Source: a virus
Taxonomy: Duplodnaviria; Caudoviricetes
Strand: one strand, 5' to 3'
Virus record (IMG/VR): IMGVR_UViG_3300037585_001389
Span: 1 to 53,927 of that record
DNA length: 53,927 nucleotides
In this document: one piece after another, positions 1 to 50,888 of the stretch
Numbering within the stretch: position 1 is the first letter of the stretch
Layout of the letters: each line of letters begins with the position of its first letter
Translations under genes and position numbers: made by a program
The notes under the pieces: generated by a model
Told to the model about the DNA's origin: nothing
Seen by the model: only the letters and a program-made list of their open reading frames with translations
The model's database searches: none

Positions 1-2
1 AC

Positions 3-155
3 AAAGCTTTTGATTACAGACATCTCGGAGCGCGACAGACAGACGCATACACTTTCAGAGGTCAAGTTGATGGAATGTTGATATATGACGATGAGTTAAC
101 AGGACCGGAAGTACTAAGAAATTACAAAGCTACAAAAGGTAGTCACAGAAACTAA
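3..155 (+). CDS. 3' end of a LamG/concanavalin-A-like domain protein (truncated by window)
   Basis: Frame from nt 3 reads KAFDYRHLGARQTDAYTFRGQVDGMLIYDDELTGPEVLRNYKATKGSHRN*; FxGxxDxxxIYxxxLxxxEVxxNY is the typical LamG-like C-terminal motif. Confidence 0.65.
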   Translation, partial: KAFDYRHLGARQTDAYTFRGQVDGMLIYDDELTGPEVLRNYKATKGSHRN

Positions 156-160
156 ATAGA

Positions 161-20808: not shown

Positions 20809-22017
20809 ATGGCAAACGGAACATCGGCACCTAATTATAGGTTGTCACAAGGAACACAGCGACGAGTATATGAAGCTGGGGTTGACCCAGTGAATACCAA
20901 ATCTGGTAAGACCGCGCGTCAACACTTGACTAGAGCTGCTATAGCGGGTGAAGTGGGTAAGATAGCTACAGGTATAAAAGATCAGATCGTAGCAAAGCAG
21001 GAGGATACAGCGGCACGTGAGAACGCGTGGGAGACGGGTTTTGATGCTATGGGTGATAGAGGTTCATGGGCCTCAGGAGAATTGTATGACCAATTCCAAA
21101 CTATGGAAAACGAATACAAAGATAATTACTTAGAAGCAGTTAGAAAGGGAGATAAGAAAGAGCAAGCTCGTATGTTGAAAGATCAAGCCACAAGGGCTTC
21201 AGGTCTTAAGGGTTGGAAAGAGACTATGGAGACAGCGAAGAAAATTAACGATGGAGTAGGGTGGAGTAATACTTTCAAAGGTGATCCAGAATCTCTGCAT
21301 ATAATGAATGCTTTAACAACGTTAGATGGTAAAACAGCTGTAACTAGATTTGGAGAAAACGGTGAGATGGTATTTGATATTAAAATGCCAGACGGAAGTA
21401 CAAAATCTATAACACGTCGCGAAGCGGATGACATGATAGCCAAAGGTGTTAAACCAGTTAAGCAAGAGTTAGACTTTATGAATGGATTACTATCTTATGA
21501 AGAAGCTGGTGCTAATGGAAAGCCTTTTAATGCTGATATTGTTAAACGTAAAAACGAACTTAATATAAAGGACGAAGAGGTGTCTTCATTAATGAGAGAA
21601 GATTTTGGTGGAGGCGGAAGTTTTTCTAATCATATAAAATCACACCCAGACATGATAGCGCAGTTCGCGGATGTGATGGGTGATGGAGATGGTACAATAA
21701 CAACAGAGGAAAAAGCGGCCTTTGATTTGCTAATAAATAGCGACATGGATGCTATAATAGACGCGATGGAGGCAAATCCTAAAGTTGCTAAAGGTTATAT
21801 AGCAGAATGGAAAACACTACAAGAAGAAGAAGCATGGAAGAGAGGTCGTGGGGGATACGATGCCGCTCAATATCAAGATGGTTTATCAAAGTTTAAGAAA
21901 GGCTCTTTGGAACAGAGGCAGTATATATGGGACCATGAGACTGCTAAAGCAACTCAGGGAATGACACCTACAGAACTTATCGAGTTCATTAACTCTAACC
22001 CAGCTCCAACAGAATGA
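20809..22017 (+). CDS. internal virion / ejection protein
   Basis: 402-aa helical protein between the small and giant cargo genes; ATGA overlap with the next gene. Confidence 0.55.
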   Translation: MANGTSAPNYRLSQGTQRRVYEAGVDPVNTKSGKTARQHLTRAAIAGEVGKIATGIKDQIVAKQEDTAARENAWETGFDAMGDRGSWASGELYDQFQTMENEYKDNYLEAVRKGDKKEQARMLKDQATRASGLKGWKETMETAKKINDGVGWSNTFKGDPESLHIMNALTTLDGKTAVTRFGENGEMVFDIKMPDGSTKSITRREADDMIAKGVKPVKQELDFMNGLLSYEEAGANGKPFNADIVKRKNELNIKDEEVSSLMREDFGGGGSFSNHIKSHPDMIAQFADVMGDGDGTITTEEKAAFDLLINSDMDAIIDAMEANPKVAKGYIAEWKTLQEEEAWKRGRGGYDAAQYQDGLSKFKKGSLEQRQYIWDHETAKATQGMTPTELIEFINSNPAPTE

Positions 22018-25000
22018 ATGAAGAATTAGAAAGACTTGTTGGTGTTCTTCAGGCTCAAGGTGCTAGCATGTCTGAAATACAGAACGCTATAGCTCAATAT
22101 AAGCAAACAAACCAGGGTGGAGAAGACTCTAATGAAGAAGAGGTTCCAACTGGTCCTACAGTTGATGCTGATGGTGTTAACGTAGACACGTATATTGATG
22201 AAACTTTTTGGGAGGTAAATAAGGTTGATGCGGATGGAAATAAGAAACTTGATAGAGATTCCTACTTCGATGAGCAAGGAAATTTTATCCAGTTTCAGGA
22301 CCAAATGCGATCGGATGCAGATTACTGGTTAGGGTATGAAAAAGTACTCAAAGAAATGGAGACGAAAAATGCTGTAACTAAAGATGCGGTTATGGTTGAA
22401 GACACCTCTTCTGAGGGTTTTATTCAAAAAGCACTTGAAGGAGAGGACGAAAATATATCAAACGCTGCTCAAACTAAGTACAACACCCACGTTCAACAAG
22501 AGATTGATTATAATAATATTACTGATGAGGAAAGGCAAAACGAAGCAAAACTTCGTAAAGAATATCTTACTCAATATGTAAAAAATGGCGGGAACCTTGA
22601 TTACTATAATGAAGAGAGGTTAATGGAAAAAGATGGTATAGATACATCAAAATTACCATCTAAAATAGAATCTGAATACGAAGCTAATAAGAACAATTAT
22701 TTTAATCAAAAATTGACTATAGCAAAACGCAGGTGGTTAAAAGAAACTGGATACAAGTTAGATAGCCCTGAGGGTGAGAAGCTTTTGGAAAAGCTAGAAG
22801 AAGTAACTCTAGCAGATATTGAAGGGGATGAAATAAAAGCAGTCGGTAAAGGCGAGCAATCACTAGCAACTATTTTTAACTCTATATCTAACGATGATGC
22901 AGAATTTAAAGAGGCAGTTCTAGATACTGAAAGAACCCTCGAGCGTAACACTATTCTTAGAAGCAAAACCTCAGAGATGGCTGATGCTTTTGATAAGTCC
23001 GGAACATTTTCTGGTCAACTCCCTGGTAATCAAACAATAAACGCTTTGTTTGGAAAATCGGTACAACAAGTTACTATAGAGGATTTTGCTTTAAAAGATT
23101 TAGAGACTATAGAAAGTGAAGCAAAAGACAAGAGTATTGAGGCTAGTCTAATTCACGAGCAGTACAACCGCGTTTATGATAAGCTAACAGAAACAGCTGC
23201 TGACTTAAAGGAGATAGGAGATCCAAAAGTTAAGATAGAAGCTATTAAAGCTAAACACGATTTAACTACGGATAAAGGTATTAAAGCCGCAAATGAGGAG
23301 ATTACAGGATTTATAGATAGGTATTCCGATTTAGTTAATGATCACAACAACGGCTCAGATGCTCTGAAAGATATATCTTTAGCTGTAACTCAGATTAAAC
23401 AGGAGATGGGTGATCTAGCTGTTCGTGAGCAAGATTTAGGTGTGTTCACGGATCAAATAGGTAAGAATCACAGGGTAGCAACTCAAATGGCTACAGCGTT
23501 TGCTAACGCTACCGTAGACTTAGCTGAAGGAGCAGCTGATGTTGTTTACATGGTAAACCCGCTTGGAGCTTTAGCTGATGAACTTATAGATTACGCAGGT
23601 GAAGATTCTTACTTAGGAACTGTAGTAGAAACAGCTAGAATATTAGCAGCGCCATTTACAGGTGGTGCGTCAATGTATTCTGGAAAAAGGAGAGATGATA
23701 TTAAAGATGCTATCAACGGTTACCAAGAGCATGTTAGTTCTCTGGTTGCTGAACCTCCAAGATACGATGACATTCAAGGTGTGGGAGATGCTGTTGAATG
23801 GGCACTAGTAGCTGGTGCAACTCAAGCTCCCCAACTTGCTATATTAGCGGCTACAGGTGGTACAGCCGGTTTAGTTATGATGGGTGCTATGTCTGCTGGT
23901 CAGAAGTTTAGCGCTATGGAGGATCAACGAGAGTTGTTTGAAAAGACTGGTGGGCTATATGGTCAAGACCATAACTTTGCTACTATGTATGCGGCTAGTG
24001 TAGCTAGCGGCGCTATAGAATCTTTATCTGAAAAGGTTACACTTGGCCTTATGAAGGGAACCGGTGGATTGACAACTAAATATCTATTCGGTGAAGTTGG
24101 TAAGAAAACAGCTGGTAGCTTTTTCAGAAGGAATATACTTAGTGGTGACGCTTTAAAATACTCTGCTAAAAAACTTATAGACATAGGTGAAGAGGGTGGG
24201 TCTGAGGCTTTAGCTACTATAGGTGGTAATTACATCGACAGGTTAGCTGGTGATAAAACCGTTAATATACTTAGTGGGGTAAACGAATCGTTTGTTACTG
24301 GAGCTCTTATAGGTTCTACACTCGTTATGCCCACAGTGTTTAGGGATGCTCACTCTTCTTTCAAAAGCGTAGAAGCTTCTGATGTGATGGAAATTAACTA
24401 TGCTAGGATCCAGGAGCAGAACGCTATAATAAATGACCCTAATTCTACACCGGCTGCTAGAGACGCGGCGGTTGAACTCAATAAAGAGTTAGTAGCTGAA
24501 AATGCTAGTGTAATAGCTTTAGATTTAAAAAGAGTTGATTCTCTGACTAAACCAGAGAAAAAGAGGTTAGTAGAGATAGAGGTTGAAAACAGAAAGATAG
24601 AGCAACAAGCTCTAGAGATCGCTCAATCAGACGCTACGCAGGCTGATAAAGATAAGCAGATAGAAACCCTTAATGAAGTTTATAATAAAAACTTAAACGA
24701 GAAAAACGGTGTTATAGCTAAGTACCCAGCTGATGAGGTTTTACGTGCTCACAAGCAAGAGCTACAGAGACTACAAGATCAATCTGACGCTATCGAAGCT
24801 GAGGGTGGGGCTAAGATCAATGTTACTAGAGGTCAGTCTAAGACTGATGAAGGTTTAGTGGTTGAATTTGACGCATGGAAAAAAGAAGCCCAAAAGAAAG
24901 GTAACGTAAGGATAGCAGCGTCAGAAGATGGCACTCAAGTTTATGGAGCTATGGTTCCAGTATTAAATAACGCTGGTGAGGTGACTAGCTATGAAATGTT

Positions 25001-28000
25001 CTTTAACGAAAAGAATATTTTTGAAGATGGTAAAACAACAACAGCTTCGCATGAGCTTTTACATGCTGCTGTATTCAACACTATACGCGCTAACCCTGTA
25101 TTACGCAGAAGGTTCGGTGAGGCTATAGAAAATATATTAGATGGACCAGGTGTTAAGATAAACGAAGAGGCTAGAAAAGATTTAGAAAGAGTCAAGCAGT
25201 ACGGTAAGACCGCTAGAGGCGAGGAGATATTTGCTATTGTGTCAGAGAACATGGTCAAGGGTAATATCACTATAGACGGCGGGGCTATTGGTAAGATGAA
25301 AGATCTGATGCGTAGGACTAGCATGGCTACTACAGATACCGATATTGAGTTTAATGATGAACAAGATATTAGAAACTTTCTAAAAGACTACAGCAGATCT
25401 AGAACAAAGGGTGTAAACGATAAACGTATTACAAGCTTGTTTGTTAAAGGAGCTAAAGGTAAATTAGTTGAAACACCGGCAACTAGAGAGGAAGCTAAAA
25501 AGATCATAGAGGAAAAGCACGAAGAGCAAGCTAAAGAGGATTTCCAAGAGACTCTTATGGCTAGCATGAGGTCTCAACCTGATATGAGGCAAGAGATAGA
25601 TGACATAGTAAAAAACCCTGATGGTACACGTAAGTATCAAACCAAAGAAGATTTCAACCGCCGAGGTGGAGTAGAATCCGCGTGGATGAAAATAAGTCAA
25701 AGCCCTTTACTTGACGGTCTTATTCAACAAGGTATGGTAGAGAGGGGTGTACCACCTCAAGCTATGCGGGATTTTACAAGGAACGTTAAAGACGGTTTGA
25801 TGGAGAGATTGTACAAGCAGTATGATCCAGCAAAAAATGATAGCTTATTCGGTTGGTTAACTGGTGTTTCTGGTGGAGCTGGTATGTCTCAGATATACAG
25901 GGCTAAGGGTGATGTTATGAACGCTTACAAGAAGGACAACATGCTGAACGTTGTCTCTCTTGATGCACCTATGGGCGAAGGTACTTCATTTGAAGCTACT
26001 ATAGAAGCTGAGACAGACACTTTTATGCAACAGCTTGAGGAGATGGACATGACTAAGACACGTGAAGCACGTGAAGCTAGAAAACCTAAAAAGGTTGTTA
26101 ACGAGTTAAACATAGATAGTAAAGGTAAATCAAATATTAAACAGGCTATTGTTGACGCGAACCTTAGCCTTGAGGGAGTACAGTATAAAGATGTTAAGAA
26201 ACTTACCACTGGTAAAGGTGCTCCATTATCAAGCGTGTTAGACATCATCGCGGAAAAGTTTGGTGTTGATCCTAAACGTATCATTAAACCATCAGATCTA
26301 AATGGTAAGCAAAGAAAAGCTGCGCAGAGTTTCATTAATAAGAACGCTGCGTTTTTATTAGAGATGTTACCCGAAGGCGAAACCGTAAGCGGTGAAGCCA
26401 CTGGTGTTGCTAACACTAAGCTTGGAGAACTCTATGAAAAAGGAGAGAGGTTGAAGTTTAAAGATGGAGCTACAGCCGCGGGTAAGTTCTCTCAACAAAA
26501 AAAATCTGACTTAACTGTTGAGCAGTTTAAAGAACTATTTGGTATTAAACCAGACGGAACTTTTGATAATAACAGGAAGCACGATGGTGCTATAAAAGCT
26601 TTAGTTAATCAAGCCACGGTACTCGCTGCTAATCAAGCGTTAAGAGAAAACGCTATGGAAAATGGTACATCTTCAGAAGCTGTTATCGCTAAGCTTGGAG
26701 AAGGGAGAGCTGAGGTAATGTTTAGCGTAAAAGTAAGGGAGAAAGTTAAAAATACTTTTGATCAACTATACCCTGATTTAATAAAAGCTGTAGCTAACTC
26801 TAACACTGGCGATATAGATTCTATACGCGTAGGAGTTGAAGCTGTTTACGGTGAAATACTTAATAAATCTGAGATTAATAGATTAGTAAACGAGGTTTAT
26901 GATCAAGCAGACGAGTACAATACTATAAGCCAAGATCTTAAAAGCGCTGGTACTGTCGCGCCTTTAAGCTTAGAACAGTTTTTACAAGACAAGTACGATA
27001 GTGCTAACACTGAAAAAGGCGTATTAAAAGCATTACAAGATAAGCTACCAAAAGATAAAGAAACTAAGAAGACTATAAGTGTAGGCGCTCATTTTTTAAC
27101 TGATACAAAAATAAATCAACAACGAGCTATACCAGGTTTAATATCAGCTGAAATGAAAAAGCAGCTAGATGAAAACGGAAACAGAGTTTATTCTGACAAG
27201 CAGATAGCTGAAATGCTTATAGCACATGTTGCCCCTATGTACGCTGGCGCAGGTAAAATAGCTGATGGAAGATTTATAGTTGTAGACGGTGTTATGATTA
27301 AGGATCCTGAGTGGGATGTTAGAAAAGATGGTTCTCCTGGAAACAAATGGAGGAGGTGGAATAAGAGTGACGTAAAAAAAGCTAGCGATAAATTATTTGC
27401 TAATAGAAGAAACCTTCTAACTAAAGCACAAATAGCTGCGTTGGGTCCAGTGCCAGTAAGATCTTACGAAGATGGTGGTAAATTTAAGTATGAAAAAGAA
27501 TATCGGTCTTACCAAGCAAAACTTAGCACAGCAAGACTTAAAGCCCGTTTGGCTCTAGAGCCTAAAGTTGGAGATCTTAAGCTTGATAGCAAAGGTAACA
27601 AAATACCTAAGAAAAACAGAAAACAATGTTGTCAAGGTATGCCTGATTTTATCAATATACTTAACACAATTGGCTTAGGTAATATACAAAAAGCTGGAAG
27701 AGGTTACACGTTAGACGGGGTTACTTTAGACACTACGTTAATACCTGAAACGTCAGAAGCTAGATTAAGATTAGCTAAAGATCCTAATTCAAAAGTTTTT
27801 GAAAACGGTAAGAAGCAAGCTGAGGACGCGCGAGTTGTTGTTAAATTAATGCTAGACACTTTATACGCTAAACTTAATTCTAAAGACGATTACGCTAATT
27901 TTGCTATGACTTTAACTAGCCTTGGCTCTAGTATGCAAGCGCCTATGAGGAGAGCTGCTATGTTTGAGTATTTTATGGAAGGTGTTGAAGATATAGTCGC

Positions 28001-31000
28001 AAACAAAGGTAAAGCTAGTATCGGATCTATTACTGAATTTGAGCATTTAAAACCTCAAGAAGAAACTATTGGAGAAATTATACACTCTTACCTAACCAAT
28101 GGTGAGCTTGACATGCGTATATTTGAGGGCGGTGGACCTTACAGACCTTATAAGACTGGGGTTCTTAGTAAAGATATGGATAACGCTCAAACAGACGCTG
28201 GGCATAAATTCACCTCGCCAAGTATGACGAGAGGTGATAGTAGGCAATACTCTTTAGAAGCTATCCGTGATACTCGTATTAGGCCTCTTAGAAGTATTGA
28301 CCCCGCTAAAATAGATACTAATAAAGAGTTCGTGGGTAGAGAGTGGGTTGCTATGAATGACGCGCTTGCTGAGGGTAAGAACTTGCAGAATGATAAAATC
28401 CTTCAAGGTGTATGGGGTAACATTAGTTTTTCTAAACGCGCTATCCCGTCTACCACCGGAATTAAGGTGACGGGGAAACTAGGAAAATTTAAAACTAAAA
28501 TAGACGTTGAAGGTGGGTTCTTAGGTAGTTTAAATAAAGCCACATTATCTGGATCTACTGTAACGATACAAGCTACCGTTGGCTCGGATCGAAGTGAGTT
28601 TAACATGGTAAAAAATCAACCTGTTAGTTTCGATATTAAAGTAGGTTCAGACGGAAACATAAGCCTTATTAAAAGTGAAAGTATTGCAGACTCGGCTTTG
28701 TTCAATGCTTTAAATGGTTGGATTCAACATAGAAATAAAGACTTTAGAGGTAGAGATAATGTAGGGGTTTTAGATTCACTAGGTATTACTGGTAGATTAA
28801 ATACTAGACGACGAGGTGGTGTTGGACCGATAAACATGGAGGTTACTGAGATCAACTCACCTGGTCCACAACAATACGATATACCACTTCAAACTGAAGG
28901 TATGTTTTCTAAGAAGTCTGCTAAACCTAAAGGTATATCTGTATTGGATTTTGATGATACATTAGCTACAACAAAATCTAACGTTTGGTTTACAACACCC
29001 AGCGCTAAGGGTTTAAACTTCGAGTTGAATCCAGAGGATTTCTACGCTACGCTAACTGGTCCGGAAGGCACTAGAGTAATGTGGCTCAATAGAGACGAGA
29101 GTACGCGCGGTAGAGGTTACGGGTTGATCAAAGTGTTAGATGTAGATGGTAAACCTATGGGTAGCGGGAGTGTTGTGGACCCTAAGATGGATTTCAAGGA
29201 ATTCTTAAAGAAAACCAGACACCAAGCTAGAAGCGGTGGTCTTGTATCAAATCCACGTGAGGTTAAAGTAATTCAAGGTGTACTGAACGCTGAGCAGTTC
29301 GCTAAAGCTGGTAAAGATTTACTAGCTGAAGGAGTTGAGTTTGACTTCTCTGAATTTAATAAAGTTGTTGACGGTAAAATAGCGCCATTGTTTAATAAGG
29401 CTATGAAGCTTGCTGATAAGTTTGGAACAGATAACATGTTTATCCTTACAGCTAGGTCACCTGAATCAGCTGAAGCTATCAAGCAGTTCTTAGACGCCCA
29501 AGGTTTAAACATACCTATTGAAAACATAACTGGTTTAGGCAAATCAGAGGCGTCAGCTAAAGCTAATTGGATAGCAGAAAAAATAGGTGAAGGCTATAAC
29601 GACTTCTATTTTGCAGATGATGCTATACAAAATGTAGAGGCGGTTAAGAACATGCTAGACGCATTTGACGTTAAAGGTAAAGTTCAACAAGCAAAGGTAG
29701 AGTTTAGTAGACGAGCTCCTCAAGAGATGGATAATATTATCGACGAGGGAGCTGCTGATTTAGATTCTGATCTTAACATTATACTAGAAGAAAGCAAGGG
29801 CGTTAGCCGTGTAAAAAGATTTTCACCAGCTAAAGCTAGGAAGAGGGGTAAGAACAAAGGCAAGTTTAAATTCTTTATTCCACCTTCAGCAGATGACTTT
29901 GCGGGTTTGATGTATGCATTTATGGGTAAAGGTAAAACCGGTGATAGGCATCATAAGTGGTTTAAAGAGAATTTATTTGATCCCTTCTCTAAAGGTATAA
30001 GAAACCTCAACATGGTTAAACAAGCTGTGGCAAATGACTTAAAGAGGATTAGAAAAGCTATGCCTGAAGTTACCAAAAAACTAACTAATAAAATTGGTAA
30101 CACGGAGTATACGCATGGTGATGCTATAAGGGTTTACAACTGGAATAGAGCTGGGTTTGACATACCGGGTTTAACGGAGACAGATAAAGCTGATTTGATA
30201 AGAGAAATTGAAGCAGATCCTCAGTTAAAAGCGTTTGCTGATGGTGTGAGCTCTATAGGCAATATGCCAGGAGGTTTAACTCAACCAGGTGAACACTGGT
30301 TAGGTGGTACCATAGCTTCTGATATGACAGATGCATTTAAAGATGCTAGATCCGTGTTCCTGCAACAGTGGAAAGATAACGTTGACGTTATTTTCAACGA
30401 AGCTAACATGAATAAGATTGAAGCTGTATACGGTTCTAACTTTAGGGAAGCCTTAGAAGACATCTTATATAGGATGGAACATGGAGGTAATAAATCTCGT
30501 GGAGCTGGAAGGTTATTAAACAACTTCACTAGCTGGATACATGGGTCTATAGGTACAACTATGTTCTTTAATGCTAGATCCGCTGTGCTACAAATGATAT
30601 CAAATGTAAACTTCATTAATTGGAGTGATAACAACATGATGCAAGCTGCAGCGGCATTTGCCAATCAACCACAGTACTGGAAGGACGTGGCTATGATATT
30701 CAACTCTCCTTTCCTAAAACAAAGGAGAGCTGGTTTAAAGACAGATGTCAACGCGGCTGAGCTACTAGCTGATATAAAGGACTCGAAAAACAAAATGAAA
30801 GCTGCTACAGCTTATCTATTACGACTTGGTTTTACACCAACTCAGATAGCGGATAGTTTAGCTATTGCAACTGGTGGCGCTACGATGTACCGTAACAGGG
30901 TTAAAACATACACTAAAGAGGGTTTATCTCAGTCTGAAGCTGAAACAAAGGCTTTTGAGGATATGATGGAGATCGCTGAGGAAACGCAGCAATCAGCTAG

Positions 31001-32093
31001 AGAAGATAGGATATCTCAACAACAAGCTTCACCTCTTGGTAAGTTTATATTAGCTTTCCAGAACACACCTATGCAATACAACAGGCTTATAAAGAAAGCC
31101 GCTATGGATTTAGTTAACGGTAGGGGTGACGCGAAAGCTAACGTGTCTAGAATAGTTTACTATGGCGCTATTCAAAACATGATCTTCTACGGTTTACAAC
31201 AAGCATTGTTTGCAGCATTATTTGGTGACGACGAAGAGGATGAGTTAACAGACAAGAAAAAAGAAAGGGTTATAAATGGAATGATGGATACGTTATTACG
31301 TGGTTCAGGTATAGCTGGAGCCGCTATATCCACGATTAAAAACGTTATCATGAAGTTCGCTCAAGAGAATGAGAAGATGGAGGATGGCGTATTCTTTACA
31401 GATCCAGATTGGGGCAATGTAGTTATTGAGGCTTTAAATATATCCCCACCAATAGGTATTAAAGCTAGGAAGATTTACAGTGGCTTAAAAACATGGGAGT
31501 ATAACAATGATGTTATCAAGCACATGAGCAAAACAGATTTAGATAATCCTATCTATGACGCTGTATCTAGTGGTGTTGAAGCTGTAACAAACTTACCTTT
31601 AAATAGGTTGTACAACAAGTATCAGAATATTAGCGAGGCTATGAACTCAGATCATGAGACTTGGAAACGTGTTGCTATGTTGCTTGGATGGAGTAAGTGG
31701 AGTTTTGGTATCAAGAACCAAGACGTGATGACGGCTAAAAATGAGGTCAAAGAAATAAGAACTGAGGAGCGAGAGGAGAGAAAGGAAGTAAAGAAGCAAG
31801 AAAGAGCAGCTAAGAAAGCTGAAGAAGAAGCTGCTATAGAGCAAGGGTTTATTGAAGATCAAAAGCAAGAAAGAGAAGACGGGAAAGAAGATATAACTTG
31901 TGCCGCTGTAAATAAATCAGGTAAACGTTGTGGTAAGAAAGTCGAAGGAGGTGGTACATACTGTACTATCCACGAGGAGGTAGAACAACGGGCTGATAAT
32001 AAAAAAGTTCAATGCTCCCATATTAAAACAAGTGGGGATAGGTGTAAAATGAAAACAACAAATAAATCTGGAAAATGTTACTACCACGACTGA
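22014..32093 (+). CDS. giant polyvalent ejection protein (hydrophobic helices, zincin, sigma-like segment, HNH-like, HAD, helical C-domain, 2 CCCH fingers)
   Basis: 3359 aa; HELLH at ~25050, YDPAKNDSLFGW...SLDAPMGE at 25820-25980, EHLKP at 28041, DFDDTL at 28947 with ILTAR and FADDAIQN, terminal CCCH repeats. Confidence 0.75.
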   Translation: MNEELERLVGVLQAQGASMSEIQNAIAQYKQTNQGGEDSNEEEVPTGPTVDADGVNVDTYIDETFWEVNKVDADGNKKLDRDSYFDEQGNFIQFQDQMRSDADYWLGYEKVLKEMETKNAVTKDAVMVEDTSSEGFIQKALEGEDENISNAAQTKYNTHVQQEIDYNNITDEERQNEAKLRKEYLTQYVKNGGNLDYYNEERLMEKDGIDTSKLPSKIESEYEANKNNYFNQKLTIAKRRWLKETGYKLDSPEGEKLLEKLEEVTLADIEGDEIKAVGKGEQSLATIFNSISNDDAEFKEAVLDTERTLERNTILRSKTSEMADAFDKSGTFSGQLPGNQTINALFGKSVQQVTIEDFALKDLETIESEAKDKSIEASLIHEQYNRVYDKLTETAADLKEIGDPKVKIEAIKAKHDLTTDKGIKAANEEITGFIDRYSDLVNDHNNGSDALKDISLAVTQIKQEMGDLAVREQDLGVFTDQIGKNHRVATQMATAFANATVDLAEGAADVVYMVNPLGALADELIDYAGEDSYLGTVVETARILAAPFTGGASMYSGKRRDDIKDAINGYQEHVSSLVAEPPRYDDIQGVGDAVEWALVAGATQAPQLAILAATGGTAGLVMMGAMSAGQKFSAMEDQRELFEKTGGLYGQDHNFATMYAASVASGAIESLSEKVTLGLMKGTGGLTTKYLFGEVGKKTAGSFFRRNILSGDALKYSAKKLIDIGEEGGSEALATIGGNYIDRLAGDKTVNILSGVNESFVTGALIGSTLVMPTVFRDAHSSFKSVEASDVMEINYARIQEQNAIINDPNSTPAARDAAVELNKELVAENASVIALDLKRVDSLTKPEKKRLVEIEVENRKIEQQALEIAQSDATQADKDKQIETLNEVYNKNLNEKNGVIAKYPADEVLRAHKQELQRLQDQSDAIEAEGGAKINVTRGQSKTDEGLVVEFDAWKKEAQKKGNVRIAASEDGTQVYGAMVPVLNNAGEVTSYEMFFNEKNIFEDGKTTTASHELLHAAVFNTIRANPVLRRRFGEAIENILDGPGVKINEEARKDLERVKQYGKTARGEEIFAIVSENMVKGNITIDGGAIGKMKDLMRRTSMATTDTDIEFNDEQDIRNFLKDYSRSRTKGVNDKRITSLFVKGAKGKLVETPATREEAKKIIEEKHEEQAKEDFQETLMASMRSQPDMRQEIDDIVKNPDGTRKYQTKEDFNRRGGVESAWMKISQSPLLDGLIQQGMVERGVPPQAMRDFTRNVKDGLMERLYKQYDPAKNDSLFGWLTGVSGGAGMSQIYRAKGDVMNAYKKDNMLNVVSLDAPMGEGTSFEATIEAETDTFMQQLEEMDMTKTREAREARKPKKVVNELNIDSKGKSNIKQAIVDANLSLEGVQYKDVKKLTTGKGAPLSSVLDIIAEKFGVDPKRIIKPSDLNGKQRKAAQSFINKNAAFLLEMLPEGETVSGEATGVANTKLGELYEKGERLKFKDGATAAGKFSQQKKSDLTVEQFKELFGIKPDGTFDNNRKHDGAIKALVNQATVLAANQALRENAMENGTSSEAVIAKLGEGRAEVMFSVKVREKVKNTFDQLYPDLIKAVANSNTGDIDSIRVGVEAVYGEILNKSEINRLVNEVYDQADEYNTISQDLKSAGTVAPLSLEQFLQDKYDSANTEKGVLKALQDKLPKDKETKKTISVGAHFLTDTKINQQRAIPGLISAEMKKQLDENGNRVYSDKQIAEMLIAHVAPMYAGAGKIADGRFIVVDGVMIKDPEWDVRKDGSPGNKWRRWNKSDVKKASDKLFANRRNLLTKAQIAALGPVPVRSYEDGGKFKYEKEYRSYQAKLSTARLKARLALEPKVGDLKLDSKGNKIPKKNRKQCCQGMPDFINILNTIGLGNIQKAGRGYTLDGVTLDTTLIPETSEARLRLAKDPNSKVFENGKKQAEDARVVVKLMLDTLYAKLNSKDDYANFAMTLTSLGSSMQAPMRRAAMFEYFMEGVEDIVANKGKASIGSITEFEHLKPQEETIGEIIHSYLTNGELDMRIFEGGGPYRPYKTGVLSKDMDNAQTDAGHKFTSPSMTRGDSRQYSLEAIRDTRIRPLRSIDPAKIDTNKEFVGREWVAMNDALAEGKNLQNDKILQGVWGNISFSKRAIPSTTGIKVTGKLGKFKTKIDVEGGFLGSLNKATLSGSTVTIQATVGSDRSEFNMVKNQPVSFDIKVGSDGNISLIKSESIADSALFNALNGWIQHRNKDFRGRDNVGVLDSLGITGRLNTRRRGGVGPINMEVTEINSPGPQQYDIPLQTEGMFSKKSAKPKGISVLDFDDTLATTKSNVWFTTPSAKGLNFELNPEDFYATLTGPEGTRVMWLNRDESTRGRGYGLIKVLDVDGKPMGSGSVVDPKMDFKEFLKKTRHQARSGGLVSNPREVKVIQGVLNAEQFAKAGKDLLAEGVEFDFSEFNKVVDGKIAPLFNKAMKLADKFGTDNMFILTARSPESAEAIKQFLDAQGLNIPIENITGLGKSEASAKANWIAEKIGEGYNDFYFADDAIQNVEAVKNMLDAFDVKGKVQQAKVEFSRRAPQEMDNIIDEGAADLDSDLNIILEESKGVSRVKRFSPAKARKRGKNKGKFKFFIPPSADDFAGLMYAFMGKGKTGDRHHKWFKENLFDPFSKGIRNLNMVKQAVANDLKRIRKAMPEVTKKLTNKIGNTEYTHGDAIRVYNWNRAGFDIPGLTETDKADLIREIEADPQLKAFADGVSSIGNMPGGLTQPGEHWLGGTIASDMTDAFKDARSVFLQQWKDNVDVIFNEANMNKIEAVYGSNFREALEDILYRMEHGGNKSRGAGRLLNNFTSWIHGSIGTTMFFNARSAVLQMISNVNFINWSDNNMMQAAAAFANQPQYWKDVAMIFNSPFLKQRRAGLKTDVNAAELLADIKDSKNKMKAATAYLLRLGFTPTQIADSLAIATGGATMYRNRVKTYTKEGLSQSEAETKAFEDMMEIAEETQQSAREDRISQQQASPLGKFILAFQNTPMQYNRLIKKAAMDLVNGRGDAKANVSRIVYYGAIQNMIFYGLQQALFAALFGDDEEDELTDKKKERVINGMMDTLLRGSGIAGAAISTIKNVIMKFAQENEKMEDGVFFTDPDWGNVVIEALNISPPIGIKARKIYSGLKTWEYNNDVIKHMSKTDLDNPIYDAVSSGVEAVTNLPLNRLYNKYQNISEAMNSDHETWKRVAMLLGWSKWSFGIKNQDVMTAKNEVKEIRTEEREERKEVKKQERAAKKAEEEAAIEQGFIEDQKQEREDGKEDITCAAVNKSGKRCGKKVEGGGTYCTIHEEVEQRADNKKVQCSHIKTSGDRCKMKTTNKSGKCYYHD

Positions 32094-33130
32094 CTTTATT
32101 AACAACTATGATACTGTCCTGCTCTTTATGCTTTGGACAGAGTTTAGCTAAAGCTTTTAAGTTTGCTACGTTTTACACAGCTGTAAATGGAGGGAACTCC
32201 ATAGCTGATCAAGATGTATGGTCTGTTACTCATGGCGGTTTGCAGAACGAAACTGTAGAGACACCATTTGATTATGCGTTTACATTTGGCGTAAGGAAGA
32301 TCGCTAGGTTTGGATATGAAAACAGGGCTAAAGTTTTCTACGATGGAACTGAAGAGTCTTGGTCTGACGGAGCGAACATAGGTAAACGTAACGGCTTAGA
32401 GTTTCTAGCAGAAGCTAAATACAAAAGGCAGATGGGTCAAGAGTTCCTTGATCAAAACCACTTCCTTAGATATGTAGGAGATGAGGTTATAGTTAAAGGT
32501 GAATACCTGCAGGATGGGTTTGCAGATATATCTTACTTTGAAACATCGGAAAGATATAGATTAAAATTAGGTAAAAAGTTTTCATTAAACCTAGGCGTAG
32601 CCCAGAGACTGTCTGAACCATATGGATACGACCCTTTAGCTGATTGGTTATTAGATAATGGAAATTTACATTATACTTATCTAGCTTTACAGGAAGGTTA
32701 TACTATGGAGTTTGACGACCAAGGAGGGATTGAGTATTGCGAGCCGTCAGGGAGGTGTGTTGCTGTTAGTTCAGAGGTTTGGGAGGCTGTAGTTATACCT
32801 GTAGTTATATCTGATTATGTAGATAGGAAGCGAGATGAGTTAAGTAACCTACTTCAATTGTCTGTAGTAGCTGGATTTGATTTCTATCACTACACAGACG
32901 AGTTCTGGTTACACGCATGGGGAAACGCTATGCCGTACCATTATAATAACGGAAACGAATTTATGTATCACAACTCAGTTGGTGGTCAATGGCTTGATTA
33001 TTCTGGTGGTCTTATATTAGGTTACAGAATAAATAAACACCTAGGGTTATTCACTGAAGGCAAGTATAATAAGTACTGGAATAGGGAGTGGTACAATTTT
33101 AAGTGTGGAGTAAACTATGTAATCTTTTAA
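32075..33130 (+). CDS. predicted outer-membrane beta-barrel protein
   Basis: Signal peptide (…SLCFG/QS), aromatic amphipathic strands, C-terminal beta-signal FKCGVNYVIF. Confidence 0.7.
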   Translation: MLLPRLTLLTTMILSCSLCFGQSLAKAFKFATFYTAVNGGNSIADQDVWSVTHGGLQNETVETPFDYAFTFGVRKIARFGYENRAKVFYDGTEESWSDGANIGKRNGLEFLAEAKYKRQMGQEFLDQNHFLRYVGDEVIVKGEYLQDGFADISYFETSERYRLKLGKKFSLNLGVAQRLSEPYGYDPLADWLLDNGNLHYTYLALQEGYTMEFDDQGGIEYCEPSGRCVAVSSEVWEAVVIPVVISDYVDRKRDELSNLLQLSVVAGFDFYHYTDEFWLHAWGNAMPYHYNNGNEFMYHNSVGGQWLDYSGGLILGYRINKHLGLFTEGKYNKYWNREWYNFKCGVNYVIF

Positions 33131-33148
33131 GTATAATAATCAATAGAC

Positions 33149-33433
33149 ATGTCAAAAGAATTAAACGAGGACACTGGGTTTCGAGTAAGTGTAAAAACGC
33201 TCATTGGGATAGGTTTTGGAATGGCCACTATTATTAGTATGTGGTTCGTACTTCAAGCAGATATAGCTGAAGCGAAAGAATTACCAGAGCCACTGCCTCC
33301 TGAAATATCAAGAATGGAGTTTGATATGAAAGATCAACTAGTACGTCAGACTATTATGAGTACTCAAGAAGATGTTAAGGAGATCAAAGATGATCTAGAT
33401 AATATAGAAAGAAAAATAGATGATTTAAAATAA
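33149..33433 (+). CDS. single-pass membrane protein with C-terminal coiled coil
   Basis: TM segment TLIGIGFGMATIISMWFVL; heptads DVKEIKDDLDNIERKID. Confidence 0.7.
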   Translation: MSKELNEDTGFRVSVKTLIGIGFGMATIISMWFVLQADIAEAKELPEPLPPEISRMEFDMKDQLVRQTIMSTQEDVKEIKDDLDNIERKIDDLK

Positions 33434-33444
33434 AATACAATATA

Positions 33445-33813
33445 ATGGAAGAGACAATCAACTTACGTGTAGTATTAACATACGCACTTCTAATGCTAAC
33501 CATGCTTACAGGTGGTGTTGCTTACGGACAAAATTTATGCGGTAGCGATATTTGCGTTGTTCAATTTAACGCTAGTTGGAATCAAAGTAATAGTATAGAT
33601 TACCTCGGCGATCTAACAGATTGTGAGGTTATGAACGTAAGTATAGACGAGGGTACGTACCAATCTGATTACGGAATAGTGGTTGTACCCACCATCATAG
33701 TTTTTAACGGAAAAGAAGTGGAGAGGTTTCAAGCTAATATCATGATGCAGCTAGAGGCTACTAGGGAAGAAGTACAAGCGGTTATCGACGAAGTAATTTA
33801 CAGCGATTTTTAA
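33445..33813 (+). CDS. exported thioredoxin-fold protein lacking CxxC
   Basis: Signal peptide ending AYG/Q; VVQFNASWNQSN in place of FxAxWCxxC; YGIVVVPTIIVF-NGKEVERF. Confidence 0.7.
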   Translation: MEETINLRVVLTYALLMLTMLTGGVAYGQNLCGSDICVVQFNASWNQSNSIDYLGDLTDCEVMNVSIDEGTYQSDYGIVVVPTIIVFNGKEVERFQANIMMQLEATREEVQAVIDEVIYSDF

Positions 33814-33814
33814 C

Positions 33815-35956
33815 ATGAGAAATTTTTTATTAGCATTATTTTTACTACCATTAACAATTTTTAGCCAAGGTAGTTGGGTTAAGATATCTGTGCAGACCGA
33901 TGATTACGGTGGCGAAACATCTTGGGAGATATATCAAGCGGGACAAGTTGTTGCCGCAAGCCCTGCTTATGCTAGCAACGCTTTACAAGAGGTTGTAGTG
34001 CCTCTTAATTCCGGTGAATATAACTTTACTATATATGATTCTTTTGGAGATGGTATATGTTGCGATTATGGACCTGGATGGTATTCCTTAACTAACTCTT
34101 GTGGTTTAGAAGTATTTGATTATGATTTTAGCGGTCCTTCAGCTACCACGTTTTTCGAGTTAGTGGACTGTGAACCACCTGTAGCTGGGTGTATGAATCC
34201 AGGAGCTTTAAACTTTAACCCTTGGGCTAATGATCAAGCGCCATGTGTATTCCCACCTGCTCCTTGTGAGTCTGGTCAAACAAATATCATAGCTTTAATC
34301 ACACCTGATAGCTATCCATCTGAAACAAGCTGGGATATAACCGCTAATGGCGAGATTATAGCATCAGGTGGAGGATACAATACAGCGGGTGTAACAACAC
34401 CAACATATGTGTGTGCGAATGAAGGAGATACCTTAATCGCTAGTATATATGATTCTTACGGAGATGGATTATGTGGAACTTGTTGGGGAGGGATAGATGG
34501 ATATTTTGATGTCACGACTTTATGTGGTGATAATATTTTTGCTATAGGTGGAGTCGAACAATTCGACACCGCATCTTCAGGACCTTATGTAGTTCCACCT
34601 TGTATACCAATAATACCTCAAGGTTGTACAGATTCAAATTACCTAGAGTATGATTCAGAAGCTATAATAGATGACAATAGCTGCTTAACCGAGGTTGTTT
34701 TAGGTTGCACACAAGAAGAAGCGTTGAACTATGATCCTGTTGCTAATACTATAGAGACTGAACCATCGTGTGATTACTCACTAGTGATTACCGACGGTGG
34801 AGCGGATGGCTGGTTTGGTAGTTGGTTGGGATTGAAACAAGGTGATAATTTATATGGACCATATCAAATGGGTCCTAATGATGGTTATGAAGAAGAGTTT
34901 GGTTTAACTTTAAACTCTAATGAAGAGATAAGCGTTTATTTTTTCACGGGTGGTAACGCGGAGACGACAGCCGCTCAGTGTGGGTTTAGAGTTGAGGGAC
35001 CTAATGGAGTGGTATTAGAAAGTGGAACTAACCCTTGGACAGATCCTTTAAAGAAGTTCCCTTATATATATACCGGTACACCCACTTGCTCTGATTACTG
35101 TATACTACCTGTTGCGGGTTGTACAGATGATGAAGCTTGTAATTACAATGACGAAGCTAATGTAGATGAAGGTTGTTTTTATTCTGTGCAGTATTACGAT
35201 TGTGATAACGAGTGTAATAATGATGGTGATGGGGATGATGTATGTGATGAACTCGAGATAGTTGGATGTATGGATCCAACTGCATTTAATTATAATGTTC
35301 TAGCGACTGATGCAGGTGATTGTGAACCGTTTATATTTGGTTGTACGGACCCAACCCAATATAACTATGATCCAGAAGCTAACACAGAAAATGGTGGCTG
35401 TATTCCTTACGTTTACGGTTGTACTAATAGTGATGCCTTTAATTATGATCCGCTGGCTAACTCTGACAACGGCTCTTGTATTGAAGTCTTGGAGGGTTGC
35501 GCGGACCCCGAAGCTTACAACTATGACACGGCGGTTAATATACCTGATCCGGAAGCCTGCCTCTATGAAGCGGTAGGGTGTGTCACAGGTCTAGGTGAGC
35601 CATATGGAGATGGTTATTGGCTCAACGATTTATGTTTCGCTTGGGTTATTGAAGTTGATTCATATTGCTGTGAAGAAGAATGGGATGCTGTATGTCAAGA
35701 GACATTTGATTATTGTCAAGTTACAGGTATAGAATCTATATTGGCTGGAGATGACCTAGTACTGTACCCTAATCCAGTTGGAGATATATTAAACATAAAC
35801 AAAAACATTGATCTAGACGTATTCGATTCTACGGGACGTCTTATCATATCAGAAATAAATACAAACGTCTTAGACGCGTCTCTATGGACCCCAGGGATAT
35901 ATACGATACGTATAATATACAACAACCGAATAATCACAAAGAAGATTATCAAATAA
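33815..35956 (+). CDS. secreted Cys/Asp-rich protein with T9SS type A C-terminal sorting domain
   Basis: Signal peptide MRNFLLALFLLPLTIFS/Q; DxYxxETSW...YDSxGDG domains; many GCTDPxAxNY repeats; LYPNPVGDILNI...STGRLI...PGIYTIRI...TKKIIK. Confidence 0.85.
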   Translation: MRNFLLALFLLPLTIFSQGSWVKISVQTDDYGGETSWEIYQAGQVVAASPAYASNALQEVVVPLNSGEYNFTIYDSFGDGICCDYGPGWYSLTNSCGLEVFDYDFSGPSATTFFELVDCEPPVAGCMNPGALNFNPWANDQAPCVFPPAPCESGQTNIIALITPDSYPSETSWDITANGEIIASGGGYNTAGVTTPTYVCANEGDTLIASIYDSYGDGLCGTCWGGIDGYFDVTTLCGDNIFAIGGVEQFDTASSGPYVVPPCIPIIPQGCTDSNYLEYDSEAIIDDNSCLTEVVLGCTQEEALNYDPVANTIETEPSCDYSLVITDGGADGWFGSWLGLKQGDNLYGPYQMGPNDGYEEEFGLTLNSNEEISVYFFTGGNAETTAAQCGFRVEGPNGVVLESGTNPWTDPLKKFPYIYTGTPTCSDYCILPVAGCTDDEACNYNDEANVDEGCFYSVQYYDCDNECNNDGDGDDVCDELEIVGCMDPTAFNYNVLATDAGDCEPFIFGCTDPTQYNYDPEANTENGGCIPYVYGCTNSDAFNYDPLANSDNGSCIEVLEGCADPEAYNYDTAVNIPDPEACLYEAVGCVTGLGEPYGDGYWLNDLCFAWVIEVDSYCCEEEWDAVCQETFDYCQVTGIESILAGDDLVLYPNPVGDILNINKNIDLDVFDSTGRLIISEINTNVLDASLWTPGIYTIRIIYNNRIITKKIIK

Positions 35957-36321
35957 TGAAGTGGATAGGCCAACATATATTTGATTACATAAGTCGCTTT
36001 AGAAACGATATATATGTTAGCGCTAAGGTTGTAGACTCAACTGGATCTTCTGGGTCTTCTGGAGATATACTAACTTCAACAGGGACCGCCACACAATGGT
36101 CCGATGCGGCTGTTACATACAACACGGTGGCTACATATACACACAATGAGACTCCCGCTGCTTCCACTTGGTCTATAACTCATAGTCTAGGGAAGTTTCC
36201 CTCAGTGACAGTTATTGACTCTAGCAACAACGTTGTATTGGGTAAAGTAACTTATACAAGTAACAACGCGTTGACGATAAATTTTACAGCGGCGTTTAGC
36301 GGCACGGCGTACCTGAATTAA
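35956..36321 (+). CDS. small tail-fibre-associated protein
   Basis: ATG at 35956 (TAATG coupling); WSITHSLGKFPSVTVID...FSGTAYLN domain. Confidence 0.65.
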   Translation: MKWIGQHIFDYISRFRNDIYVSAKVVDSTGSSGSSGDILTSTGTATQWSDAAVTYNTVATYTHNETPAASTWSITHSLGKFPSVTVIDSSNNVVLGKVTYTSNNALTINFTAAFSGTAYLN

Positions 36322-36331
36322 AAAAGAAAAT

Positions 36332-40813: not shown

Positions 40814-41134
40814 ATGCAAAGAAGATTATATAATATAGCTGAGAACAAGACAACGACATTGATACCGGTTGGTGGATCAAACGGGTCTATAGCTTCTATA
40901 AGGCTTACAAATTCTAGCGCTGCAGCTGTAGATGTGAACTTACACCTTTATGAGGAAAGACCAGCCTCGGCAAATGATAACGCTTATATAGCGGTTACAA
41001 ATATACCTAGCAAAACTACACTCCTGCTAAATGAAGGTATTAGTTTTGATAACTCTGTTTTGGGGTTAAAAATAATAACTACTAACGGTGGTAGTCTAAG
41101 CGTTAGTACTCCGCTTTCAATAATTATAAAATAA
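40814..41134 (+). CDS. small virion-associated protein
   Basis: 106-aa beta-rich ORF, TAATG-coupled to the endolysin. Confidence 0.55.
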   Translation: MQRRLYNIAENKTTTLIPVGGSNGSIASIRLTNSSAAAVDVNLHLYEERPASANDNAYIAVTNIPSKTTLLLNEGISFDNSVLGLKIITTNGGSLSVSTPLSIIIK

Positions 41135-41604
41135 TGGATAATATAAGTGAACACATTAGTTACAGAGAGGCTACTCGAAGTAACACGGCGTTACGTAGAG
41201 GTATAGAAAATATACCTGACATAGATCAATTAGAGAACATGAAGGTTCTCGCGGAAAAGGTTTTTGAACCACTAAGGAAATGGGTTGGAGGACCGATAAA
41301 AATAAATAGCTTCTACAGATCACCTGAACTTAATATAGCTATTGGAGGTAGTAAGAAGTCTCAGCATTGTCACGGGCTCGCTATAGATATAGATGACACT
41401 TTTGGAGGTAAATTCACAAACTTAAACGCAGAAATGTTTAAGTATATAAGATATCACCTTAATTACGATCAGATAATATGGGAGTTTGGAGATGATGATA
41501 ATCCAGCTTGGGTTCATGTGAGCTATGTGAATGAAGAGGAGAATAGGCAAAGGTGTTTGAAGGCTTATAAAGATAAGGGGAAAACTAAATACAAAGTTAT
41601 ATAA
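41134..41604 (+). CDS. endolysin, peptidase M15 family
   Basis: INSFYRSPELNIAIGGSKKSQHCHGLAIDI and WVHVSY zinc-peptidase motifs. Confidence 0.88.
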   Translation: MDNISEHISYREATRSNTALRRGIENIPDIDQLENMKVLAEKVFEPLRKWVGGPIKINSFYRSPELNIAIGGSKKSQHCHGLAIDIDDTFGGKFTNLNAEMFKYIRYHLNYDQIIWEFGDDDNPAWVHVSYVNEEENRQRCLKAYKDKGKTKYKVI

Positions 41605-50461: not shown

Positions 50462-50619
50462 TATGTGGTTTTTAATTTGTCTCTAAGTATATTTCTTCGA
50501 GACATTAGTTTACTTAATACTTCTTTATCTTTTTTTCGCTTTAGTTTTCTATCTATAGCGTTAATCTCATCGAGTTTTGCAACCCAATCCTTTTTAACTC
50601 CATTTTTTCGTCTACTCAT
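50461..50619 (-). CDS. small basic hypothetical protein
   Basis: Probable start MSRRKNG at 50619 (ATGA overlap) within the 50461..50664 ORF. Confidence 0.55.
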   Translation of the reverse strand: MSRRKNGVKKDWVAKLDEINAIDRKLKRKKDKEVLSKLMSRRNILRDKLKTT

Positions 50620-50888
50620 TTTCTTTTTTGTTTTAAATATATTACTACCGGGTGTATTATACATATCATTATGCTAAATGATATTAAATACCATTTTGCA
50701 TTAACATCTTCTAGTAATACTATAATACCAATAGAGGTAGATACCCCTAGTATTAATCTTATCAGTATACCGGAATAAATTATAGCTAAAGAAGCTGCTC
50801 CAGGCAATTTACTGGACCATTCTTCAAATATAATACCTATGAAACATATAATACCACCAACTAGTGATCCTAGTGTTGCACCTATCAT
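50616..50888 (-). CDS. small integral membrane protein (about 3 TM)
   Basis: Three hydrophobic stretches; ATGA overlaps on both sides. Confidence 0.6.
   Translation of the reverse strand: MIGATLGSLVGGIICFIGIIFEEWSSKLPGAASLAIIYSGILIRLILGVSTSIGIIVLLEDVNAKWYLISFSIMICIIHPVVIYLKQKRK

Follow-up and report, generated by a model that had tools for sequence, protein, structure and literature searches.

A conserved three-gene unit with envelope export signals in uncultured marine phages and its possible action at lysis

We analysed a viral contig of 53,927 bases from IMG/VR (record IMGVR_UViG_3300037585_001389; estimated completeness 82%), hereafter the window, which comes from an uncultured marine phage of flavobacteria-like hosts. 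Four consecutive genes in it, g1 to g4, encode a predicted outer-membrane β-barrel, a small bitopic membrane protein, an exported thioredoxin fold without the CxxC motif, and a type IX secretion system (T9SS) cargo protein. Comparison across phage lineages showed that the conserved unit is g1-g2-g3, referred to below as the trio, and that g4 is an extra confined to the window's lineage. In three other lineages the trio stands beside a holin gene and without a T9SS cargo. The reading we favour, to which we give a little less than an even chance, has the trio acting on the host envelope at lysis as a barrel-based counterpart of a spanin, with g4 as a surface cargo peculiar to the lineage.

An earlier note on this DNA, made from the sequence without database searches, had described a block of four consecutive genes at 32075-35956 with export or membrane signals. 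The open reading frames (ORFs) lie exactly where it placed them (Table 1), and the barrel, the transmembrane helix, the signal peptides and the T9SS C-terminal domain (CTD) were all confirmed. The start of g1 overlaps the stop of the upstream 3359-residue gene by 19 nucleotides (nt); the g1|g2, g2|g3 and g3|g4 gaps measure 18, 11 and 1 nt, and the stop of g4 overlaps an in-frame ATG of the next gene within TAATG at 35954-35958. The ratio of nonsynonymous to synonymous substitution rates (dN/dS), calculated with five relatives where dS was unsaturated, was 0.05-0.15 for each of g1, g2, g3 and g4; all four genes are therefore under purifying selection.

IMG/VR contained 419 g1 relatives, and the best 80 loci were examined as a window-like set. 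Genes were called with hidden Markov models (HMMs) built from our own alignments, that of the holin from 10 sequences; cargo genes were counted within 3.5 kb of the trio and holin genes within 2 kb, a locus being testable when it had enough flanking sequence. The full trio was present in 66 of the 80 window-like loci, in the order g1-g2-g3 in 62 and g2-g3-g1 in 4. The g2-g3 gap was at most 60 nt in 64 of these 66 trios, and in 163 of the 167 full trios over all groups. A g4-like gene accompanied the trio in 40 of 41 testable loci of the window's lineage, so that the four genes are indeed co-conserved there.

The picture outside the window's lineage was obtained with distant g1 representatives, whose mutual identity is 25-45%; nearly all have a signal-peptide-like N-terminus and most end near an aromatic residue. 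Lineage 2 (80 loci) yielded 66 full trios, all in the order g2-g3-g1, with a CTD protein in none of 19 testable loci and a holin in 24 of 28. The third lineage (31 loci) gave 29 trios, with CTD proteins in 0/15 and holins in 14/18, and the fourth (4 loci) gave three trios, with 0/1 and 2/2, respectively. Summed over these three lineages, a T9SS cargo lies near the trio in 0/35 testable loci and a PF11351/phrog_3427-type holin in 40/48. PHROG scans placed the phrog_3427 holin 0.1-0.9 kb after g1 in all six lineage-2 loci scanned, and the lineage-2 holin is a member of Pfam PF11351. The other lineages differ in their portal and capsid families; the holin linkage is therefore not simple whole-genome shared ancestry. 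Among the remaining loci, a single one (L173) carried the trio with no holin within 2 kb (0/1), and two (L178 and L179) resembled the window's type, with CTD protein 2/2 and holin 0/2. Two distant representatives (P0173 and P0256) had no IMG/VR relatives, and a third (P0136) had one locus.

The same division appeared in a maximum-likelihood tree of g1. Rows more than 85% identical were dropped (145 to 59), and the window was added to give 60 rows. One branch, with support 100/100, had on one side 33 rows, of which 20 were cargo-linked, 3 linked to both, 10 to neither and none to a holin only; on the other side were 27 rows, 15 holin-linked, 12 linked to neither and none to a cargo, 'neither' including truncated loci. 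Cargo linkage is thus confined to one side of one branch of the g1 tree. The earlier note had joined all four products into one apparatus, a view that the cargo-free, holin-linked trios of three lineages do not support.

The first 22 or so residues of g1 form a signal peptide, after which comes Q, and the protein ends in ...VIF, a β-signal. In an alignment of 50 sequences (mean column identity 66%) the signal peptides vary in sequence and not in character, and the mature part and the C-terminus are conserved; a few homologues carry a lipobox-like signal in place of the usual signal peptide. An AlphaFold (AF2) model, of moderate confidence (mean predicted local distance difference test score, pLDDT, 70.2), has about 14 long strands that close into an antiparallel barrel, as in outer-membrane barrels, together with a conserved insert of 78 residues containing helices (residues 181-258) and a conserved low-confidence loop (77-105). 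Foldseek matched the model to NanC among solved structures (E 2.8e-5), and VIA to Tsx (Z 11.2, root-mean-square deviation (rmsd) 4.8, 180 aligned residues), the EstA barrel (Z 10.9), NanC (Z 10.7) and KdgM (Z 10.5). All good matches to solved structures are outer-membrane barrels. A FadL homologue scored Z 7.9, below Tsx and NanC, and PorV was absent among the 50 matches listed. By sequence, g1 had no match in the PDB at E≤10 and no PorV/PorP/SprF family match in Pfam (E≤0.1) or NCBIfam (E≤1). The best structural match to g1 in BFVD is a viral UniProt protein of 342 amino acids, A0A516LKJ4 (E 2.9e-23, TM-score 0.63, 23% identity); its source record was not matched in the phage collection by any of four g1 representatives.

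The g2 protein is the most conserved of the four, with 72% mean column identity over 54 sequences, and its motifs persist across phage lineages. A hydropathy scan gave one hydrophobic helix at about residues 13-31, followed by about 60 charged residues. Its parts are a short conserved N-terminal tail, the transmembrane helix, a conserved juxtamembrane motif, a proline-rich linker and a charged C-terminal part that is presumably helical. Lysine and arginine residues are more numerous before the helix than after it in 33 of 54 rows and fewer in 6, a weak charge bias by which N-in/C-out would be the most likely topology. The family phrog_1009, of unknown function, was matched by 34 of the 54 members (best E 2.5e-6). 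In the ESM Atlas the nearest clusters of g2, and likewise those of the N-terminal part of g4, were all viral and without a Pfam domain; the similarity of these two queries to DUF2730 and MAM (0.83 and 0.81) was below the level of a lead. A second g2-like gene occurs in some loci, between g3 and g1 in L155 (7681-7956) and upstream of the block in L076 (1755-2057), the latter matching phrog_1009.

The g3 protein has a signal peptide followed by Q, and its C-terminal F is invariant. A profile of 61 homologues retrieved thioredoxins from the PDB sequences (best E 1.9e-9); 203 sequences matched at E≤1, and they were thioredoxin-type throughout the best 60 listed. The position of the CGPC motif is gapped in the profile alignment, with N residues in the homologous stretch. 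On these alignments g3 cannot act as a conventional redox enzyme. Three longer proteins containing g3 and an unrelated cytoplasmic domain were also found; each has only one member, its contig measuring 1.0-1.9 kb, and we rejected these fusions as likely chimeras.

The g4 protein consists of a signal peptide (residues 1-18), β-sandwich modules at about 19-116, 155-254 and 318-421 joined by cysteine-rich repeats, a cysteine-rich region before the CTD, and a sorting domain at about 650-713 (nt ~35762-35953). The sorting domain scores 38 bits with PF18962 (cut-off 27) and 42.9 bits with the type A model TIGR04183 (cut-off 23). An AF2 model of g4 has a mean pLDDT of 65.8; in Foldseek its CTD (~650-712) superimposes on the T9SS substrate domain 8glk_D with a TM-score of 0.72 (rmsd 2.8, 72 columns) and on the RgpB CTD (7pq4) with 0.60, and the passenger matches C2/ferlin-type sandwiches. 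With a sorting domain, an Ig-like β-sandwich CTD and an N-terminal Sec signal peptide by hydropathy, g4 belongs to the T9SS type A cargos. At E≤1e-5 its family counts no fewer than 1445 homologues in marine data, almost all of them bearing PF18962, and the passengers of g4-like proteins vary in length and domain content (628-1325 amino acids).

The tails of 51 signal-peptide-bearing g4-like proteins of the window's lineage fell into 29 classical, 21 short (~40 residues) and 1 that was cut off. TIGR04183 recognised 15 of 15 classical and 0 of 20 short tails scanned; targeting to the T9SS can thus be relied on for the window's g4 but not across its whole family. L007, L008, L014, L017, L021 and 16 others have the short tail, which may represent a new or minimal type of sorting signal; a comparable tail closes an Omp28-like accessory protein (L015, 10141-11103). 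Repeats rich in cysteine, resembling those of g4, are also present in cyanophage S-CAM3 virion proteins and, among relatives, in large proteins lacking a signal-peptide-like N-terminus.

The export signals are retained across the families. By our own crude hydropathy test, used in place of SignalP, a hydrophobic core was kept in 74 of 78 homologues of g1, 67 of 67 of g3 and 50 of 51 of g4, and it was followed by Q in 75/78, 66/67 and 51/51, respectively. A Q after the signal peptide is described as a hallmark of Bacteroidota signal-peptidase-I substrates (PMC5837995, PMC10653852). These Q-rule signal peptides, the sorting domain and the similarity of the window's terminase to those of Flavobacterium and Cellulophaga phages point to a host among the Bacteroidota.

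The g1 family comprises 3596 homologues at E≤0.001, which form 409 clusters at 50% identity and have neither a Pfam domain nor an informative name. A g1 pattern scan of one genome per species, covering 185,579 prokaryote species, gave 7 relatives, all in taxonomically discordant metagenome-assembled genomes (MAGs; L082-L088, labelled Nitrosopelagicus, Parvibaculum, Maricaulis, Rickettsiales, Sphingobacteriales and Flavobacteriales); these contigs are probably mis-binned phage contigs. We take the family to be phage-only and the block not to be a recent host pickup, an origin that the earlier note had kept in view, because the 3596 homologues are unnamed and the 7 matches all sit in discordant MAGs. 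One g1-bearing MAG contig is 120 kb long, and two block-bearing IMG/VR contigs of 114 and 120 kb may be concatemers or larger phages. Among the deposited phages of INPHARED the block had no DNA match, and tblastn gave none for g1, three other g1 representatives, g2 or one g2-like paralogue; the g3 search returned marginal thioredoxin matches only (E 0.5), and that of g4 matches only through the ~50-residue cysteine repeats. A full-text search of the literature gave no description of the trio, and the relevant part of a Porphyromonas gingivalis phage study notes phage proteins obeying the Q-rule and no such trio (PMC10367356).

Starting from the folds, export signals, conservation and gene contexts, we infer the following course for the trio. 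The three proteins would be made late in infection. g1 would be exported by Sec and inserted in the host outer membrane as a barrel by the β-barrel assembly machinery (BAM); g2 would be anchored in the inner membrane, its helical C-terminal part extending into the periplasm, and g3, a redox-dead thioredoxin fold in the periplasm, would bridge g2 and g1. The trio would thus link both membranes and, after the endolysin has cut the wall, most probably break or fuse the outer membrane; less probably, it would time lysis. g4 would be placed on or outside the cell surface by the host Sec and T9SS machineries, for adhesion, as a decoy or for exclusion. Because the trio stands beside a holin and without the cargo in three lineages, its context favours lysis over exclusion, adhesion or uptake.

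Several observations weigh against this reading. Only 2 of 50 testable loci of the window's lineage have a holin within 2 kb of the trio, and three relatives of 98-100% completeness carry theirs some 30 kb away from it, at 1.7-2.9 kb upstream of the terminase gene. The endolysin, in two of these three, lies 35-44 kb further along the same array; lysis genes are therefore spread in this lineage, with the trio between them, and since the endolysin is also far from the holin, the distance between trio and holin says little here. The holin proximity elsewhere could reflect a shared accessory-gene region at the operon end. The periplasmic part of g2, about 60 residues, is too short to span the periplasm alone, and the orientation assumed for g2 leans on a weak charge bias. 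The Rz-like spanin family phrog_7686 was matched by 2 of the 54 g2 members, at E 0.011, and no fusion proteins joining trio genes were found. No cultured phage carrying the trio came out of the INPHARED searches, and hence no phenotype is available. We know of no spanin with a thioredoxin fold or a barrel.

The lysis genes of the window's lineage were examined further. A PHROG scan of 10 divergent loci found a holin near the block in four (L019, L021, L073 and L076) and an endolysin within 2.5 kb in two (L045 and L057), and a protein query for the holin succeeded in 4 of 5 records. By collinearity with the three complete relatives, the left end of the window (1-160) should cut the holin gene, which is why no holin was found in the window; the contig probably breaks in or near that gene. 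We found no canonical spanin candidate in the window, no lipobox ORF on the coding strands except g1, and no transmembrane protein adjoining the endolysin, whose two upstream neighbours have no transmembrane helix in a hydropathy scan. The nearest deposited relative, MW202828.1, is without the trio by HMM. At 34913-36458 (L212, 3914-5459) it has an ORF with three transmembrane helices, an ORF of 207 amino acids with an N-terminal transmembrane helix and then an M15 endolysin, an array that reads, in this single comparison, as a classical cassette. Its annotation calls the 207-residue ORF 'hypothetical protein' and the endolysin 'peptidase M15', and has no feature for the three-helix ORF.

The earlier note had seen in the four proteins one surface apparatus of the infected cell. 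We consider it unlikely that they form such an apparatus, for exclusion, receptor masking or removal, or adhesion, with no role in lysis. All four bear export signals and co-occur in the window's lineage (40/41), and the block adjoins tail-fibre-like genes, as exclusion genes do in some known phages; the llp gene of T5 adjoins the T5 receptor-binding gene. The junctions of the block also gather other exported genes (Omp28-like, PAP2 phosphatase, lipoprotein), and the g4 passenger varies in length and domain content. However, the trio is cargo-free (0/35) and holin-linked (40/48) in three other lineages, is unusually conserved for an exclusion system (g2 72%, g1 66%, with g2 motifs that persist across lineages), and is accompanied in the window's lineage by short-tailed g4-like proteins (21/51) that the T9SS model failed to recognise in any of the 20 cases scanned. 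Of the roles that the note had offered, superinfection exclusion and adhesion may apply to g4, and the holin context turns the trio towards lysis. Uptake of vitamin B12 finds no support: there is no transporter or TonB-type feature, and g1 matches small 12-14-strand barrels. That the trio is a helper for the T9SS cargo, with g3 as a chaperone of g4, g1 as a PorV- or PorP/SprF-like shuttle or anchor and g2 as a tether, is in our judgement quite improbable. T9SS moves folded cargo, and the cysteine-rich g4, adjacent to the trio in the window's lineage, must fold in the periplasm before export; redox-inactive thioredoxin folds serve as substrate-binding domains elsewhere, as in the b domains of protein disulphide isomerase, and type B cargo has cargo-specific barrels, as in SprB/SprF. 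Yet no cargo lies near the trio in three lineages, neither Pfam nor NCBIfam places g1 with PorV, PorP or any other family, its search of PDB sequences was empty at E≤10, and the g4 domain is of type A, not B; type A cargo uses the host's own PorV.

We also give little credence to the view that the trio times lysis instead of rupturing the outer membrane, g2 being an antiholin or holin partner, and g3 in the periplasm and g1 in the outer membrane sensing, for instance, superinfection, much as in T4 lysis inhibition. The neighbouring holin of three lineages would suit it, as would the small size, bitopic nature and strongly conserved N-terminal tail of g2 and the second g2-like gene of L155 and L076; against it, we found no similarity to known antiholins, a sensor has no obvious need for an integral outer-membrane barrel, and the trio is far from the holin in the window's lineage. 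That g1 to g4 are just ordinary parts of the virion or of its assembly, with hydrophobic N-termini that do not direct export, is hardly credible, even with the block inside the structural gene array and g4-like cysteine repeats in S-CAM3 virion proteins and in unsignalled large proteins of relatives. The signal peptides differ in sequence but not in properties and precede a Q, the pattern of Bacteroidota signal-peptidase-I substrates (PMC5837995, PMC10653852); some g1 homologues have a lipobox, g1 is a barrel with a C-terminal aromatic residue, and g4 has a T9SS sorting domain. With Bacteroidota-type export or membrane signals on all four, assembly in the cytoplasm as virion parts is very unlikely, and on this point the earlier note was right.

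The block lies within a single same-strand gene array that runs from the terminase gene (1850) to the M15 endolysin, after which the replication genes follow on the opposite strand (Table 1). The terminase, portal and capsid proteins of the window match tailed-phage PHROG families. The terminase is 45% identical to those of the Flavobacterium 'elemo' podophages and 63% identical to that of MW202828.1, an uncultured freshwater record, and is also similar to those of Cellulophaga, Tenacibaculum and Maribacter phages. The 3359-residue protein upstream of g1 matched no PHROG family; most related loci conserve its C-terminal 1000 residues upstream of g1, and near its C-terminus (~31900-32093) it has two similar Cys/His-rich stretches resembling small zinc-binding motifs. 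The tail-fibre label of the downstream genes is based solely on their phrog_697, phrog_8309 and phrog_30556 matches.

Table 1. Positions of the four-gene block and of neighbouring features in the window
Feature	Position	Strand	Basis
g1, outer-membrane β-barrel, 351 amino acids (predicted)	32075..33130	+	ORF, alignment, model
g2, bitopic membrane protein, 94 amino acids	33149..33433	+	ORF, hydropathy, alignment
g3, exported thioredoxin fold without CxxC, 122 amino acids	33445..33813	+	ORF, profile search
g4, T9SS type A cargo, 713 amino acids	33815..35956	+	ORF, PF18962, TIGR04183, model
Gene of 3359 amino acids directly upstream of g1	22014..32093	+	ORF; assumed ejection/internal virion protein
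Downstream structural/tail-fibre-like genes	35956/35884-36321 and 36332-38680	+	phrog_30556, phrog_697 (structural protein), phrog_8309
Endolysin, Peptidase_M15_3, without signal peptide; end of the array	41134..41604	+	phrog_894; PF08291, E 1.3e-13

In relatives the g1|g2 and g3|g4 junctions are insertion hot spots (for example L002, 9042-9675, and L038, 9704-12143). The inserts encode families of small proteins that are very basic and alike at their N-termini, a nuclease of the staphylococcal type (13 loci), a PAP2 phosphatase, a lipoprotein and a protein resembling Omp28. Among the replication genes of the window, an ORF of 90 amino acids (50616-50888, minus strand) has three predicted transmembrane helices and a sub-threshold DUF4257 match; it could be an early-region membrane protein or a second holin-like protein. 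A scan of the window for sigma-70 promoters and terminators gave about what chance would (terminators 5 against 4.7 expected), with a model unsuited to Bacteroidota promoters.

The trio is abundant, apparently phage-only and strongly conserved, and at least four phage lineages that differ in their capsid genes carry it. A bolder version of the reading that we favour holds that it is a three-part, barrel-based equivalent of a spanin, the first of its kind, in which the dead thioredoxin fold connects the barrel to a short coiled-coil protein of the inner membrane, and that it is common in marine Bacteroidota phages, with g4 in addition a T9SS surface fibre; we regard this as possible and rather doubtful. 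If true, it would fill in a missing last step of lysis, add a new protein architecture to a textbook pathway and make the trio a marker for Bacteroidota phages in ocean metagenomes. The survey of Kongari et al. (2018) reports no spanin in 91 of 677 phages, among them Croceibacter and Bacteroides phages (PMC6139136). About one in eight surveyed phages, Flavobacteriia and Bacteroides phages included, thus lack a recognisable spanin and raise the question of how their outer membrane is opened; the same authors suggested that an outer-membrane protein could act as an o-spanin. In a North Sea flavophage study, few of the phages are reported to have a spanin candidate (PMC8776804). The g4 family would make phage use of the host T9SS a widespread trait, beyond the single published case.

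That case is the 'Cryophage' of Bellas 2020, for which the account of the cargo genes describes phage-encoded T9SS type A cargos (PMC7468147). They share with g4 the type A sorting domain, variability among related phages and a presumed use of the host secretion system, so that g4 is a new member of a published kind, the phage T9SS cargo. Flexible islands of this cryoconite phage, as described there, encode the published cargos, which are enzymes and a PA14 protein, whereas g4 has no enzyme domain, is a β-sandwich and cysteine-rich chain, holds a fixed place beside the trio and counts at least 1445 members in marine data.

The components of the trio also have known counterparts. Tsx, NanC/KdgM and the translocator domains of autotransporters share with g1 the barrel fold, the signal peptide and the C-terminal aromatic residue; no solved chain of any kind is related to g1 by sequence, and the conserved 78-residue insert and loop 77-105 are features of g1. 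Lom of phage lambda is another phage-encoded outer-membrane barrel, its gene lying among the tail genes; g1, by comparison, travels with g2 and g3. Thioredoxins of PF00085 (for example 2vim) align with g3 in the fold and the cis-Pro loop region, but they have the CxxC motif, which g3 lacks, and g3 is predicted to be exported to the periplasm and has its invariant C-terminal F.

For the trio as a whole the closest comparison is with two-component spanins such as lambda Rz/Rz1. Both are phage-encoded, and the trio, like spanins, would be made late. A spanin pairs an inner-membrane protein, with an N-terminal transmembrane helix and a helical periplasmic part, with an outer-membrane partner, and g2, with its presumably helical and periplasmic tail, would pair with g1 in the same way. 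Spanin genes lie beside or within the lysis cassette; the trio adjoins the holin in three of the four lineages sampled outside the window's, and not in the window's own lineage. The outer-membrane partner in a spanin pair is a small lipoprotein with a lipobox, whereas that of the trio is an integral barrel of about 350 residues. The trio further adds a third, obligatory component with a thioredoxin fold, the periplasmic part of g2 is short, and there is no meaningful sequence match to spanins. Because it has no lipoprotein and no sequence link to spanin families, we do not file the trio as a spanin, and it may nevertheless work like one.

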